A stretch of 64,000 bases of DNA from assembly GCA_963662405.2 (NCBI GenBank), contig CAXXKT010000003.1, positions 96,001-160,000 on the forward strand, in the 5' to 3' direction. Shown piece after piece: positions 27,001-36,000 of the stretch. How positions within the stretch are numbered: position 1 is the stretch's first letter; each line of letters opens with the position of its first letter. Source of the stretch: Syntrophales bacterium. GTDB lineage: Bacteria; Desulfobacterota; Syntrophia; Syntrophales; UBA2210. Made by a program: the position numbers.

Positions 27001-30000
27001 AGGACGGTATTCTTCCCCTGCAGCAAAATCAGGTTCGGGTGCCTGCATGCATCCATACGATATTTCTTTCCCTCAGTTCTCCGACGAACCGGACGCGGGA
27101 CCGACCGCCCTGACCCGGCGGCCACCGCAGGCGACCGTCTGCCCGTCCCGTATCTTGGAGCGCTTCCGGTATTCCACGGTCCCGTCAACGCTGACCAGCC
27201 CCTCTTCGATCGCCAACTTCGCCCTGCCGCCTGTATCACAGAGACCGGATGCCTTCAACAACCGGTTCAGCTCGATATGATCACCTGAGAATGTAAATGT
27301 TTCCATTACTTTTTGCCGCTCCTCAGGGCGGTATATACCATATCGGGACGATCTATGAGAAGGGTGGAGACATGGAAAACAGTCAGATCTTGAAACTCGG
27401 CCGCTTCAGGTTGGATGGGTTACAAAAACAAAGGTTGATATGAAATGCTTGTTATTGTTGTTGTCTGGTGAGTGAACAAATTCGGTCATGCTAACTGAAA
27501 TATATCTTACCTTTGCTGCGAATAGAGGAGAAAGCAACAGTCAATGAACTGGAGTTGTGCTTGACCTTTCAGTTTTAAAAAAATTTCTTGACAATACAGC
27601 ACCATGAAGTTAGGGAATTTCTGTTTTGATCTTTATCTGTTTTATTTGCTTGTGGACAGCTATAACCATGGGGGAGGATTATGGTCTGATCATCAAAGCC
27701 CTGTTTCTTTGAAAAGAGATGGGGCTTTTTTTGTGCACGGTTTAGCAAGGGAGATGCGATATAAATTATTTGCCAAATGATTTCAAGTGAATAATTTTTA
27801 ACAATTTAATCGGAATCTACACTCGTTAAGAAGCAAATAAAAGGTTGATTGTGGAATACCATGAATCTTTATCCGCCTTCCCTTTGCAAACGATCAAAAA
27901 GATTAAATCCCGTTAATGGGTAAAAGATATCTATAGCTAGTTTCACAGTTTTGTTTTCTTATACAAAAATTGATCTGAGGTTTTGTAAGTGGTAAAATCT
28001 GAATATAAACAATATGATTCAGAATTGGCAGATAAAATAGGAGACCGATCACTTATATGGATCGGGGCACGTGGGTGCGACATCTTGCCACTTTTGCACA
28101 TGCCACAATTGAAAACTGTTTTTTCAATTATTTCTCCAATGCGAGCATTTGGTGTGCAGGATTTGTGCTACGAATCACTTACCCAAAAACGTGTTGATCT
28201 TGATTCATATTCTATAGATTATGACAATTCAAATGAAGCGGGAGAAATTCGCAAACAGCTTTTTGATGCGCTTAATCACAATTGCGTTGCAGTTCCCTAT
28301 CGCCCACTTCGTTTTTTTGCTTCAATATACTATCCCCGGACAAAATTTGTTGAATATCTCGGATTATTTCATCAAATGCAAACAGCATTTGAGCACAAAA
28401 TATGGGTTGAAACAGAATTAAATAATATGGGATTAATGTTATCCCTTGGTTATATAAAACAAATATGGATAACCCACGTGCTTTGATTGGTGAATACCTT
28501 AATAGCGGATCACTGGTTGTTCGCCTAAACCGGTCAACCGGTGGAAATGGGTTGTTTCTCATTAATGATTTAAATGAGTTCGATTCACTTTGGAATAAAC
28601 TTGTCATGCATGAGGAAGGTTACTTTTCTGTTGCCCCATATTATTATCCCAGCACGCCAATAAATTTAAACTGTACTGTATTTCATGATGGGAACGTTGC
28701 TTTACACGGGGCGTCTGTTCAGATTATTGGGGACCCATTACTAACGAATTTGAAATTTGGTTTTTGTGGAAATGACTACGGAAAAATTAAAGACATTGAA
28801 CCTAATATGCTGGACCGTATAGAGCAGATGGCTCGCAAAACTGGTCTTTGGCTTGCATCGGTTGGATATCGAGGGAGTTTTGGTATCGATGCACTGTTGG
28901 TGGGGAGTGAAGTATATCTAACAGAAATTAATCCTCGTTTTCAGGGTTCTTCATCTTTAGCTGCACAGTTTGACAGAGATGCTGGTCGCCCTGACGTCTT
29001 CCAAACTCATATGGGTTCATTCTTTGGATTGAAAGTGCCTAAACAATATTCTCTACGAGAGATTGTTGTTGCTCAGCCAAACATTTCACAAATAATATCG
29101 CACAATATATCTAATGGGATCGAACATGTTGAAAATGATATTGGATTTTGTGATTCCGTTAATTGTAAATTAAGCACCCTGCCGGATAAAAATATTGACA
29201 TACAGCCAAATGGAGTCCGTTTTAAGATGACTATTAATGAAAGTGTTGCCGATGAAAACGGCAGATTGTTGGAAAGAGTAATCCCATATCTCACGTTTGT
29301 AATGAAAAATATCATTGTCTCATAATGACAGAGAGAGGTATGAAATGAACACATGTACACCAGATCAAATCATTAAAAGTCTAAAAAAGGGTGCATTCAC
29401 TCCTTTTATTGGTGCCGGTGCATCCGGACTCAGGGAAAATGCACAGCCGGATGAGTATCATTGCATGGGGCTTATGCGCTCCTATCGAAATTCTACTACA
29501 TATTTCAGATATGGCAAGTTACTATCTTCGGGTCTTGCACCTTCACAAATAGAATATCTTAAAATACTTATAAATGTTGACGCGGATAAATCTATGTCTT
29601 TATTTGAATTATGTAAAGGGATGGCAGATAAACTGTATGAAGGTCAATTGTTGAAATTTCAGAAAATGCTCCTTTCGGTAATTATTAATCTGACAAATAC
29701 AGCAGGAAAACGATTTGCAGATGGTTCGTTGATTTCAATTAGCGAAGATAATAATTATATAACAATGATGCCTGATGAACAAAAAGAACTTGTTGAACCA
29801 TTTGTTAAGCTAATAAAGATTACAGAAGAACTATCAAGTGTTGACGAGACAGTGTGCTGTGAAAACTGTAAAGAAGGTTCAAAGCAAAAAGAGTGTCTTT
29901 TTGTTTTAAGAGATCACTTCCGTCCGAAATACATTACGTATCGCTTAAAGTTGTTAGCAAATTTTCTGCTAACAGCGGGTCAAAGAAAAGAAATACAATC

Positions 30001-33000: not shown

Positions 33001-36000
33001 GAATACCTGTGTGAGGCTTTCTTGCTTCAAGGATCTTCACGGAGAGGCCGAAGCGATTTCGTTGGATGAAAAAAGCCGATTTGAATTCTGTCTGTGGGAT
33101 AAAGTAAGTGCGAATTATATCAAGGCTTCTGCACATCAAATGATATCATGTGGCCTATTGAAAGAAGAGTAAGAAAATGAACGAAGTATTCAGGATAGTA
33201 TAGTGCTATCTACACCTCAACAAGCTAAATTTGAAATCTTTTCGCATGGGCTTTCTGTTCACTCAACTGCCAATGATTTGTTACATGATCTTTGGAATGA
33301 TAGGCCATTATCATTAGTAGATTATACGACAACTTCAGGTTTGACTATTAGACTCGAAAATGATGTCTGGATCAATTCGCCATTATCCAGTTACAATAAA
33401 AATTTTGTTAAATCACCAAAATGGGAATTAGTTGTATCAAACGGGCATTTTTACATCGAATCATCATCTGCGCAACTTAAAGCAGAGCCGATATCAGTTC
33501 CCCAGTATTACAATAAAAAAAATCAATGGGGAGAGCCATATATAAAATATATTAAAACACATGCTGACCGTGCACGGATATCGCCGATCGAAGGTTGTAG
33601 TTATTCATGTCATTTCTGTAACTCCAGCTATAAAAATAAATACAAGAAAAAGAAGATCGAATTTATGATTGACGCCATTAATATGGCCCTGCACGATCCT
33701 TGGTTGCCTGCTCGTCATTTGTTAATATCTGGTGGAACCCCTTTTTTAAAGGATTATGGCTATTTGCAAGAAGTTTATTGTGCCGTCCCAAAAAAATTCC
33801 CAGACTTGGAAGTAGATGTGATGATGGTTCCAACTCCTGGTTTATTACAGTTTGAAGAGTTGAAAAATGGAGGTATTAAGGGAATCTCTATCAATATGGA
33901 AATCTACAATGACGATGTGGCAAAGAAAATTATGCCTCAAAAAGCATTGGAAACCCGTGAAGGGTTTCTAGGGCATCTTCATCATGCGGTGAAAATATTT
34001 TCTCAAGGTAAAGTAAGGTCTTTACTTTTGGTAGGACTTGAGCCGATTGAAGATACGCTAAAAGGAGTTGAAGCACTGGCAAGAATTGGTGTTGATCCTG
34101 TATTGAGTGCCTTTCGACCTGATCCTAATACCCCGCTTGGAAATTATCCTCCGCCATCAGTAGAATTTCAGAAAAATGTGTATTTGCGAAGCTTGGAAAT
34201 AGTTTGTAAGTATCCAGGAGTGAAGCTTGGTCCCCGATGCAAACCTTGCCAACATAATGCGATTGCCTTTTAATTCTGGCTTTGTCCATGAAAAGTAGTG
34301 GCAGTCCGCTTTCTTTTTGGGGTACCCTGTCTTTTCTATAAAAATGGCGAGTATTCCTGAATTCTGTGGTCAAACAGCAAGTCTGAACTTTTCATATCTC
34401 CGTTCTAATAGATTGGGGTCGGGCCAGGCGTTTGAGGATCGTGGGAGTATGATTTTCTTCAGGTGCATTCCCTGGAGTCCATGGAGCAGCATGGGGCCGT
34501 CTTTTTCTTTCAGGATATCGTCTCGAACTTCGATGACGTAGTCGGGTCGTATCCCGATCATGAAACGGTCAAAGGCCGCATGGTGGAATTTGCAGAGGGC
34601 AACACCGTTATTCACAATGGGTTCACCGTCGGGCTCTCCATCAGGGATGATATGTGCCGCATCCAAAAGTTCCAGATGTTTGAGACGACAAAAAGCGCAC
34701 TGCTCCCGATATGCATGCAGCACCCGCTCGCGGAAGCCGCGTTGGTGTAATCTCTGTTTGACGGAGGTTGTGATATACAGTCTGCGGATGTCTGAATCCG
34801 TTTCCGAGATTGGCGGAGCGCAGTCTTCGGAATCAAAGTATTGATTCACTGTTTTATAATCATCAACGGCAACCGTGAACGTCAATTTCTTCGGATCATC
34901 TCCTACAATATATACAGGCCATGCGGCCAGATATTTGCCCGGCACAACGCTGTGGAAGTAAATGAGCGGAATATTGTGGAGCATAGCATTTCGAAGCCCT
35001 ACATTTGCACGGTGGCGTGGATTGGTCCCTCGATACCTGTATAAAAGGAGTCCTTCCGGTGTAAACCCATCATCATAGTGTCCGGATGTTGTTGTCGTAA
35101 TCGAAAGGGGATATTCGGGAAGTATCTTTGGCTTAAAAATGCCTTCTGGGGAAACGAGAGAAATTCGCTGATCTTCAAAAACAAATCCCTGCGCAAGGAT
35201 TGTTCTCTGAAGCACATCGCCGTGAAGGTTGACCTGTTCGGATAGCCACGCGAAAGCTGCAATGCGTAAACGCCTATCCAAGTCTTGTTCAAGATTGATG
35301 CGCATATAATCAATCAAGGTTTGTTATTGTTCATTTATAAAAAAGAGTTTTTCCATATTATCTTTTTATTTTCTAAGTCTTGCCTTTTTAGCTTTTACAA
35401 TAATTGATGCAAATCCAATGGCTTTTTCCAAACCATCTTCCTCTGCTGCATAACTTAAGAGTTGTTTTCCTATATCCTTTTCATTGAAACCATTCTTTAT
35501 TATGTGATCGGTTATTCTATCAAGGGTTCCTTGTTCAAGAGGCAAATTTGTTTGCGTTTGTTTTTGTGGTCTGGTAGGCCAAAAATGAGGTGTTTCATTG
35601 ATCAATACACCTTCGCTTTTCGTAAAAGTATCTTTTAGTTGCATGCTTTCATCCTCAATCCCATTTGGGGGCACACTTTGGGGGGATATGTTTGAAAGTT
35701 TCTCACGATGTTTTAACAAAAGTGTCTGGTTAAAAGAAGCTTTGTAAAAACGCCAATATTGGGAGCCCGTAGCATTTTTCTGTGTAATCGCTTCACCTAA
35801 TGGATTTATAATTCCCAAACCGTAAAGTGCTACTTCTTTATTGTTTAATTGTCCGACAAAATCAATTGTTGATTTTGGCAGATTCCAGTGCAAGAGGTCA
35901 GGGTAAAAAAACTGAGGCTTAGGTCTCCCACAACTGATCTCATATAGCCTTTCTGCCTGTGAAACAAGATAGTCATAATCGAGAACCCTCTGAGGAGGTT

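Follow-up and report, generated by a model that had tools for sequence, protein, structure and literature searches.

The operon and its surroundings

The window analysed here is a 64,000-nucleotide stretch of a Syntrophales genome, and it contains an operon of five open reading frames encoding an ATP-grasp enzyme in two pieces, a SIR2-like protein, a STAND NTPase with pentapeptide repeats and a radical SAM enzyme. The features of the region, with the evidence for each, are as follows.

27590..27735, + strand: multi-copy leader element of the host (nhmmer, terminator call)
27989..28486, + strand: ATP-grasp enzyme (clade a), N-terminal piece, 165 aa (family HMM)
28429..28431, + strand: G run at which the ATP-grasp frame is one base short (three-frame translation, 50 homologues)
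28465..29325, + strand: ATP-grasp enzyme, C-terminal piece, 286 aa (PF02655, family HMM)
29345..31117, + strand: SIR2-like protein, 590 aa (PF13289, motifs, structure model)
31148..33172, + strand: nSTAND1 NTPase with C-terminal pentapeptide repeats (PF20703, PF13576, motifs)
33203..34273, + strand: radical SAM enzyme of the NF045502 family (Pfam Radical_SAM, NCBIfam, motifs)
34370..39105, − strand: HNH nuclease, ADP-ribosylglycohydrolase, DarT and UvrD-like helicase (Pfam, PADLOC)

The genome-wide survey's note described five low-GC reading frames beside defence-type genes, no PADLOC hit, a frameshifted ATP-grasp gene and no ATCase-like gene, and all of these points hold on re-examination. 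The individual genes have a GC content of 0.35-0.38, or 0.365 overall, compared with 0.555 and 0.573 in the window flanks. PADLOC gives only trace matches (the best being pVip at E 3e-4, with ThsA and SIR2 at E 0.02) and none for the ATP-grasp pieces or the STAND protein. The HNH, ADP-ribosylglycohydrolase, DarT and helicase genes are convergent to the operon and lie outside the cassette, and they are absent from the recurrent neighbour clusters of the radical SAM family. The island has no convincing direct repeats at its borders, the window contains no tRNA, no Rfam family reaches its gathering score in 26500-40000, and promoter-like matches are at chance level (35 vs 39.3 +/- 7.1). The leader element upstream has a TTGACA box and a conserved ATG-GTC-TGA core, followed by a strong hairpin terminator at 27695-27728; the element has 53 nhmmer matches in the genome, 45 of them with a same-strand reading frame starting no more than 450 bp downstream. 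It is a host feature outside the travelling cassette, and is probably the promoter/attenuator of the operon.

The ATP-grasp gene is split by a 1-bp frameshift and continues in another frame past the G run. The N-terminal piece scores 179 bits over 33% of the family HMM and is 50% identical to residues 7-149 of its homologue at locus L082; the C-terminal piece scores 306 bits, matches ATP-grasp_3 (PF02655, 29.7 bits vs a cut-off of 23.2, E 8e-7) and carries the EINPRFQGS motif that is conserved across the family. The segment from EHKPW to PW is 20 residues long in 44 of 50 homologues. A homopolymer error in the assembly was considered and rejected on the contigs of runs X1-X3 (one sample, possibly the source of the assembly), which span the G run without an indel, although rare variants are lost from contigs. 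The window copy is the minimal four-gene form of the cluster, with no cassette-type carbamoyltransferase anywhere in the genome, and the frameshift in its ATP-grasp gene probably means that it is disarmed or in decay. The same phylum has two weak ATP-grasp relatives (L167 and L168, about 110 bits), on short contigs that carry none of the other family genes.

The proteins and their relatives in known systems

The SIR2-like protein matches SIR2_2 (PF13289) at 31.5 bits against a cut-off of 24.5, and it combines a sirtuin fold with intact versions of all four immune-type SIR2 motifs, GAGxS (here GAGAS), TTNYD, KLHG and GYSxxD. Its model (pLDDT 76.7) has the immune-sirtuin fold with a large helical insertion at approximately residues 93-263, and its top six fold matches are immune NADases; KomC is matched at Z 12.8 (rmsd 4.5, 247 aligned), ThsA at Z 12.2 and Avs5 at Z 10.2. 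The closest solved relatives of the SIR family, which comprises 615 clusters, are all anti-phage NADases, and the only PDB sequence matches to the family profile are KomC-type Kongming effectors (E 6.5e-10). Motifs and fold suggest that the window protein is an NADase-type effector, with putative activity. The neighbouring STAND protein contains an nSTAND1 domain (PF20703, 76.8 bits vs 27.1, E 3e-21) with intact Walker A and B motifs, followed by pentapeptide repeats (PF13576, E 7e-9). It has no N-terminal effector domain, and the N-terminus is no longer than 85 residues in all 38 aligned family members. A complex prediction for SIR residues 5-590 and STAND residues 1-410 scored 0.00, which is uninformative either way.

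The radical SAM enzyme belongs to the NCBIfam variant family NF045502 (134.2 bits vs 125), with a CxxxCxxC motif and a conserved C-terminal GPRCxPCxHN motif. The folds nearest to its model (pLDDT 95.2) are MqnE, LipA, NifB, BioB, PylB and HydE, and the fold searches gave no substrate assignment. MSMEG_0568, of the Nit1C cluster, is the nearest named family at 25-29% identity, but the score against TIGR04043 is 78.8 bits vs 303.7 and there is no nitrilase among the neighbour clusters scanned; for viperin the figures are 16 bits vs 180 (NF038283) and the pVip match noted above. The radical SAM family of the window's enzyme was not found in viral contigs, and plasmids hold radical SAM relatives only at the MSMEG_0568 level and no SIR relative. 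In the pyrrolysine PylB/PylC and Bes pathways, too, a radical SAM enzyme works alongside an amide ligase and a tailoring enzyme of the redox type; the fold neighbours of the window's radical SAM enzyme include PylB (Z 16.9), and the peptide ligases PGM1, BesA and LdmS are weak sequence relatives of the ATP-grasp enzyme. However, the identities are 12-20%, the scores are far below cut-offs (BesA 18-50 bits vs 750, LdmS no more than 49 vs 475), and those pathways have no immune module.

Among known defence systems the closest parallel is Kongming, in which, according to the available parts of PMC13434031 and PMC13454610, a SIR2 NADase is switched on via a partner protein by a non-canonical signal of enzymatic origin. 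No solved relative is closer to the SIR family than KomC, in sequence or in fold, but KomC has 264-278 aa against 590 aa with a large insert in the window's protein, the partner in the cluster is a STAND NTPase, the sirtuin is often catalytically dead, and the enzymes point to amino-acid rather than nucleotide chemistry; neither a KomA deaminase nor a HAM1-like KomB occurs in the operon or in the recurrent neighbour families scanned. Avs5/AVAST proteins also link a SIR2 effector to a STAND NTPase with C-terminal repeats, but on one polypeptide, whereas here the SIR protein is a separate reading frame, the STAND N-terminus is short, the repeats are pentapeptides and there is an obligate linkage to a biosynthetic operon; the PADLOC Avs models do not pick up the STAND protein, which matches no PADLOC family at E 0.1. 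The NADase of Thoeris is in the same structural group and TIR domains occur in relatives of the cluster, but in these relatives TIR is a fused or separate replacement of the NADase and not its partner, and Pfam finds only SIR2_2 and TIR-type domains, and no SLOG/macrodomain, on 41 SIR members. Hailong and Panoptes share the two-module logic of synthase and effector, but the domains of the operon and its recurrent neighbours include no nucleotidyltransferase, mCpol or transmembrane effector.

Linkage, chemistry and effector swapping across the family

We examined 42 de-duplicated loci of the radical SAM family, each flanked by 8 kb or more of sequence in both directions. The earlier observation that the enzyme travels with partners is confirmed, an ATP-grasp gene being present in 39 of the 42 and a carbamoyltransferase gene in 34, but the statement that most family loci lack the SIR2/STAND pair fails for this well-flanked set, in which the pair is found at 21. 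It occurs with only one ATP-grasp clade (21/30 clade-a loci vs 0/9 clade-b loci, the latter mostly CPR/DPANN), and all 21 pair loci have the ATP-grasp gene. The other 21 loci, including all nine of clade b, have the core without the pair, and the STAND family is absent from all four clade-b genomes searched; the product therefore appears to be useful without these effectors. The effector-less core is kept even in CPR/DPANN genomes of 0.8-1.0 Mb. The linkage is conserved over Acidobacteriota, Thermodesulfobacteriota, Pseudomonadota, Actinomycetota and Chloroflexota in several gene orders (the family tree being a quick tree), and adjacency survives inversions and rearrangements across phyla.

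The cluster is rare and mobile. The SIR family is present in 3/401 and 1/401 of the genomes searched, with a radical SAM gene no more than 5 kb away in all four, so that co-location is far beyond chance. No SIR or STAND member without the radical SAM gene was seen in four partly overlapping samples (401, 401, 351 and 381 genomes), of whose matches only three were not search centres. SIR and STAND diverge fast, with median identities of 0.20 and 0.25, whereas the radical SAM enzyme has 0.49. ATP-grasp distances follow those of SIR and STAND (rho 0.79-0.80) more closely than those of the radical SAM enzyme (0.63, n=31), and the nearest locus is shared with SIR in 16/25 cases, STAND in 14/25 and radical SAM in 10/25, but these correlations overstate the coupling because kin share history. 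In most cases the ATP-grasp gene is directly next to the SIR gene or sits at the far end of the SIR/STAND pair.

The carbamoyltransferase of the relatives keeps the carbamoyl-phosphate site (equivalents of S52, R54, R105, H134, Q137 and P268) and the alpha-carboxylate arginine in 67/67 sequences, but the equivalents of R229 and Q231 in the aspartate side-chain site are lost in 66/67, with glycine at the R229 position in 64; the numbering is that of the E. coli enzyme, with positions checked on the PDB alignment. The sole sequence keeping both residues, at L020, looks like a housekeeping pyrB. These substitutions point to a changed specificity, with a substrate other than aspartate. The enzyme is fused to the ATP-grasp enzyme at L010, L097, L100 and L101. 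Tailoring genes vary among the 42 loci (nitroreductase 18, second radical SAM 7, flavin monooxygenase 6, PLP decarboxylase 3, NAD-synthase-like 3), and a Liv/Urt-type ABC permease adjoins the cassette in 12 de-duplicated loci. We note that a single receptor would not be expected to cope with this variety of tailoring enzymes, unless it varied together with the product. The RaSEA-like and NAD-synthase-like genes prompted a reading as DNA modification by 7-deazaguanine, which was dropped because they occur in only 7/42 and 3/42 loci and there is no recurrent transglycosylase or DNA-binding enzyme.

The effector slot is mutually exclusive and swapped, a new observation on this cluster. Among 40 de-duplicated pair loci (the window included), 34 have exactly one filling and none has two; the single fillings are an active SIR2 (7), an N-terminal TIR (8), a C-terminal TIR (1), a HEPN-like domain (4) or a separate gene (14), and in the other loci either no effector is seen (4) or the SIR is partial (2). 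A survey of fusions in 150 independent 50%-identity SIR representatives agrees: three SIR2 motifs are intact in 29, none of which has an N-terminal fusion, and all three are kept in 0/25 TIR-fused and 0/5 HEPN-like-fused representatives, with the TIR glutamate retained in 24 of the 25. It is likely that the sirtuin survives only as a scaffold (a pseudo-sirtuin) at loci with a TIR, HEPN-like or separate effector. The HEPN-like domain has an RxxxxH-type motif in 10/10 sequences and is presumably a HEPN domain; Atlas gave unnamed leads only, all under 0.9. The 14 separate effector genes, in which Pfam recognises TIR, SIR2, CHAT or PNP, have in common an unnamed C-terminal domain of ~270 aa, to which an HMM adds two further genes. 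Pfam finds nothing in this domain and a homologue search gave one protein; we call it propeller-like because of two matches in the PDB, both weak (E 2.5e-7 and 1.3e-3).

Candidate functions

The survey's note had suggested a small-molecule-making defence or conflict system. The conflict part is well supported by effector swapping, by the anti-phage NADase relatives and by the co-divergence of ATP-grasp, SIR and STAND, and the small-molecule part, with a putative product, by the altered carbamoyltransferase and the swapped tailoring enzymes. A specifically anti-phage role fares less well: there are clear independent defence neighbours at only ~5 of the 21 pair loci, with 4 ambiguous (140 of 154 candidates scanned, a count made without a control set), defence-island enrichment across the family is modest, and the effector-less core occurs in another clade.

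Our preferred reading, which we hold tentatively and at a little under even confidence, is a metabolite-gated conflict system, most likely in abortive-infection defence. The radical SAM enzyme would make a non-proteinogenic amino-acid derivative, together with the non-aspartate carbamoyltransferase and the variable tailoring enzymes at loci that have them, and the ATP-grasp enzyme would join this derivative to an amino acid or amine. This product would be an activating or licensing signal, read by the STAND-pentapeptide NTPase and the SIR2-like module, which would release an effector: the SIR2 NADase itself in the window's genome, where the architecture is seen and the activity putative, and elsewhere a TIR, HEPN-like, caspase-like (CHAT) or phosphorylase domain of presumed activity, with the sirtuin as scaffold. 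We regard a more specific form as possible but doubtful, in which an amino acid or dipeptide derived from radical SAM chemistry and often carbamoylated, instead of a nucleotide, serves as the immune second messenger or tripwire, and STAND plus pseudo-sirtuin scaffold docks interchangeable effectors via the propeller-like domain. In its boldest form the linked Liv/Urt-type importers would let the molecule travel from cell to cell, and CPR/DPANN episymbionts with the enzymes only would make it to manipulate hosts.

The same architecture fits a somewhat unlikely guard or tripwire, in which a constitutive molecule keeps STAND/SIR off, or the module guards the enzymes, and the effector fires when infection removes the molecule or inhibits the pathway. 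Panoptes and Hailong both work with inhibitory molecules made constitutively, according to the available parts of PMC13434031, the STAND repeats weakly match HalA (E 7e-8, 32 bits vs a cut-off of 250) through generic pentapeptide repeats only, and the ATP-grasp gene is never missing from well-flanked pair loci, as an antidote would require. However, the window's genome is viable with a broken ATP-grasp gene beside intact NADase and STAND motifs, so an 'on' signal fits better than an antidote, an argument that draws on one genome. For guard logic to survive the frameshift, the operon would have to be attenuated, the two pieces to complement one another, or a second trigger to be required.

An improbable alternative is a natural-product cluster, making an antimetabolite or toxin against competitors or hosts, with a recruited addiction or self-destruct module that is coupled to the product and not anti-phage. 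The swapped tailoring enzymes, the adjoining permeases, the small CPR/DPANN genomes that keep the core and the mostly non-defence neighbours are consistent with this; but SIR2, TIR, HEPN-like, CHAT and PNP domains with STAND form an anti-invader repertoire in the available text of PMC8195603, and the recurrent neighbour clusters contain no exporter or resistance gene conserved across loci. We consider a protein-modification switch very improbable. Here the ATP-grasp enzyme would attach a residue made by the radical SAM enzyme to a protein such as STAND, the SIR scaffold or one from a phage, and this mark instead of a free metabolite would control the effector, in keeping with the ATP-grasp enzyme's co-divergence with SIR and STAND, its gene position and its peptide-ligase relatives; but the carbamoyltransferase-ATP-grasp fusions and amino-acid-type importers suggest small substrates, and clade-b ATP-grasps work without SIR or STAND. 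That an independent SIR2/STAND defence pair merely hitchhikes with an unrelated biosynthetic cluster is hardly credible, since although half of the well-flanked loci lack the pair and other conflict cassettes (pentapeptide-TIR; P-loop plus toroid) also join the radical SAM family, the samples held no SIR/STAND member without the radical SAM gene and adjacency survives rearrangement across phyla.

The literature searched, with bioRxiv supplements and most subscription papers falling outside it, contains no description of such a system, and no such neighbourhood appears among the matches listed in 12 of the 13 supplementary files of PMC8195603 or in two supplementary files of PMC7159879. In the available part of PMC8195603 nSTAND1 is defined in effector-swapping conflict systems, and the signals of Kongming, Thoeris, Panoptes and Hailong are nucleotide-derived molecules in that of PMC13434031. 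If the metabolite-gated reading is true, this would be a bacterial defence controlled by a non-nucleotide small molecule, with a secondary-metabolite-type pathway linked to a STAND module whose death effector comes in five or six interchangeable kinds, joining natural-product chemistry to NLR-like immunity. Complete clusters are present in the cultured environmental isolates L027 and L029, and the question is therefore directly testable, with the cluster providing a testable context for the radical SAM family, the altered carbamoyltransferase, the pseudo-sirtuin scaffold and the unnamed effector-coupling domain.

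The operon and its surroundings

Five open reading frames occupy positions 27989-34273 on the + strand of the window, and their inspection bears out the gene content claimed in the genome-wide survey's note: an ATP-grasp gene in two pieces, followed by genes for a SIR2-like protein, a STAND NTPase (of nSTAND1 type) that carries pentapeptide repeats, and a radical SAM enzyme, here assigned to family NF045502. The low GC content also claimed there is confirmed (0.365 for the operon versus 0.555 and 0.573 for the flanks), as is the absence of a PADLOC identity, since the operon proteins give only trace matches to these defence-gene models.

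Features of the operon region
27590-27735, + strand: multi-copy host element with a TTGACA box, a conserved ATG-GTC-TGA core and a terminator hairpin
27989-34273, + strand: the five-ORF operon
28429-28431: G run at which the ATP-grasp gene is short by one base
34370-39105, - strand: UvrD-like helicase, DarT, ADP-ribosylglycohydrolase, then HNH nuclease (Pfam and PADLOC)
about 41096-41257, - strand: second, inward-facing copy of the host element

Contigs of three runs from one sample, possibly the source of the assembly, carry an identical sequence at the G run, so that the frameshift is probably genuine. The cluster as it stands in the window is probably damaged. The ADP-ribosylglycohydrolase encoded next to the operon is DraG-like and is not a macrodomain DarG. 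The host element has 53 matches genome-wide, 45 of them with a same-strand ORF no more than 450 bp downstream, and 16 of the 53 precede DNA of less than 45% GC, compared with 5.6% of random 1.5-kb stretches. No Rfam family matches it at gathering score; it may be an attenuator not described before, or a site where foreign genes insert.

Conservation and genomic context of the cluster

A search of 40 related genomes yielded no radical SAM gene of this type, with weak matches alone (E 6e-4 and 9e-4), and 380 further genomes from the phylum gave no match to the STAND family. A search with aligned members of the radical SAM family recovered 78 loci from genomes (the best 80 of 82 matches) and 80 from metagenomes (the best 80 of 309); removal of near-duplicates left 131 loci, of which 42 are flanked by 8 kb or more on each side. 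Family HMMs built from the fetched loci and mapped back onto them place ATP-grasp in 39 of these 42, a carbamoyltransferase in 34, and the pair of SIR2-like and STAND genes in 21; nitroreductase genes occur in 18 of the 42, flavin monooxygenase genes in six, and seven carry a second radical SAM gene of RaSEA-like type. The ATP-grasp proteins split into two clades; the pair accompanies clade a, to which that of the window belongs, in 21 of 30 loci, and clade b in none of nine. Clade b is mainly from CPR bacteria and DPANN-type archaea, and the STAND family is absent from the four clade-b genomes searched. Loci with the pair are scattered across a quick radical SAM tree and five phyla. The four-gene form seen in the window, which lacks a carbamoyltransferase, is a natural one, since the genomes of four other loci (L024, L031, L043, L060) likewise contain carbamoyltransferase matches at the housekeeping level only.

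Reverse searches for the SIR family, comprising SIR2-like proteins of the window's type, were positive for 3 genomes in one set of 401 and for 1 in another set of 401; for the STAND family, 2 genomes of 351 were positive. Every match is a radical SAM locus (G1374 is L055 by coordinates); this test of linkage is small, because only three matches were not search centres. The cluster seen in the window is a genuine one, rarely encountered, and its genes are conserved together.

As to defence context, 14 truncated proteins were dropped from the 154 neighbours of the 21 loci with the pair, and a PADLOC scan of the remaining 140, run with no control set, gave 28 matches at E 1e-10, nine of which are generic ABC ATPases. 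By judgement on this uncontrolled scan, five of the 21 loci (L022, L026, L028, L029, L130) have clear independent defence neighbours and four more are ambiguous. No family member was found in the viral contigs or plasmids searched. These results, like the existence of enzyme cores that lack effectors, speak against reading the cluster simply as anti-phage. Relatives of the window cluster nevertheless bear the hallmarks of a conflict system coupled to biosynthesis.

Several further arrangements were seen. Clade-b genomes of about 0.8-1.0 Mb of CPR/DPANN type (L007, L015, L020, L023, L054, L056, L061 and others) keep radical SAM, carbamoyltransferase, ATP-grasp and tailoring enzymes with no effector. 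A different cassette is attached to the radical SAM family in L063, L066-L068, L076, L110, L145 and L153, with a P-loop protein, one or two unknown proteins and an alpha/alpha-toroid (squalene-cyclase-like) protein, plus a 960-aa pentapeptide protein in Lachnospiraceae. In 11 loci (L008, L013, L016-L018, L078, L094, L098, L103, L108, L123), several of which lack the pair, the radical SAM gene has a pentapeptide-TIR gene as its direct neighbour, usually together with an ISAzo13-like transposase. Within the group L082, L083/L085, L013, L098, L137 and L142, several loci contain two paralogous radical SAM genes and two have tandem TIR-SIR genes.

Biosynthetic enzymes and their predicted product

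All 67 carbamoyltransferases retain the arginine for the alpha-carboxylate as well as the residues for carbamoyl phosphate, but 66 of the 67 have lost those for the aspartate side chain, the remaining one resembling a housekeeping gene. We infer from this pattern of residues that the enzyme uses an alpha-amino acid other than aspartate. In four loci it is fused to ATP-grasp, which has no more than a weak relationship to BesA, PGM1, LdmS, PurT and biotin carboxylase. For the radical SAM enzyme, the model (pLDDT 95.2) resembles MqnE, LipA, NifB, BioB, PylB and HydE with no clear winner; among named families, MSMEG_0568 comes closest (25-29% identity). A Liv/Urt-type ABC permease adjoins the cassette at varied positions in 12 de-duplicated loci. 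Together, the carbamoyltransferase changes, the fusions, the relatives of ATP-grasp and radical SAM, and the permease point to a putative small amino-acid-like product. Liv/Urt-type importer genes flank the cassette in L006, L011, L014, L016, L017, L021, L022, L024, L082, L085, L091 and L106, which belong to different phyla, and do so at different positions.

Interchangeable effectors and the proposed mechanism

The SIR2-like protein of the window keeps its catalytic motifs. PDB matches to the SIR profile are to Kongming KomC-type proteins only, and the model (pLDDT 76.7), which has a helical insert at residues ~93-263, finds its best folds in KomC, ThsA, SIR2-HerA and Avs5. KomC has an essential histidine (PMC13454610) to which, judging by the motif, the histidine of the window protein would be equivalent. 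The SIR family forms 615 clusters at 50% identity (E < 1e-30), and among the best 150 of these the 29 proteins whose motifs are intact are without exception free of N-terminal fusions. TIR is fused to 25, of which 24 retain its glutamate, and another five have a fused domain that bears a motif of RxxxxH type; none of these fused proteins keeps all three motifs. A further 86 are unfused without the full motif set, and five have unclustered N-termini. The clade of unfused, dead sirtuins has an effector gene immediately upstream of ATP-grasp.

Effector genes upstream of ATP-grasp
TIR: L025, L079, L141
SIR2: L028
CHAT: L035, L039, L047, L136, and L046 by 71% identity to L039
PNP: L116, L135

Pairwise BLAST finds a C-terminal domain of ~270 residues common to fourteen separate effector genes, linking different effector types, and an HMM found two more members. 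It has a weak beta-propeller likeness and no Pfam match, and lies behind TIR, SIR2, CHAT, PNP or HEPN-like domains (L079:8694-9998, L025:2499-3860, L028:11168-13627, L135:18540-20297, L084:2043-3494 and others); a search of the window's genome did not find it. Of 40 de-duplicated pair loci, 34 have the effector slot filled exactly once and none has it filled twice; no effector was seen in four, and the last two have a partial SIR gene. One STAND protein has, by eye, an extra FGE-sulfatase-like C-terminal region (L082:14987-18106).

Across 31 loci, ATP-grasp distances correlate better with those of SIR and STAND (rho 0.79 and 0.80) than with those of radical SAM (0.63), which is no more than a hint, because kin are not independent. 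The enzyme core also exists without effectors in other loci. The likeliest of the readings considered, though at somewhat short of even chances, is that the enzymes would produce a modified amino acid or dipeptide by which the STAND/SIR module is activated or licensed; the module would then release its effector, which in the window's genome would be NAD+ cleavage. Guard logic, in place of an activating signal, fits the architecture equally, but is hard to square with a genome that lives with its ATP-grasp broken and the neighbouring NADase intact, and we regard it as unlikely. That the enzymes form a natural-product cluster equipped with an addiction switch is more doubtful still, a protein-modification switch slightly more so again, and mere hitchhiking is very improbable. 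The weights given to activation and to these rivals together make functional coupling of some kind between enzymes and effector module likely, while the chance of anti-phage action in particular is put a little above even.

The logic of the system resembles that of Kongming and its parts resemble those of Avs5, yet tests of membership failed for Avs, Kongming, Thoeris, Hailong, Panoptes, the viperins and the Nit1C radical SAM family alike. Our literature search, outside whose scope lay most subscription papers and bioRxiv supplements, gave either nothing or unrelated papers for the combination; nor do the parts searched of 10.64898/2026.10.19.760177, PMC8195603, PMC13454610, PMC13434031 and PMC7159879, or of the supplements of the eLife papers PMC8195603 and PMC7159879, describe the system. 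The architecture appears to be categorically new and open to direct testing; the function ascribed to the cluster is a predicted one.
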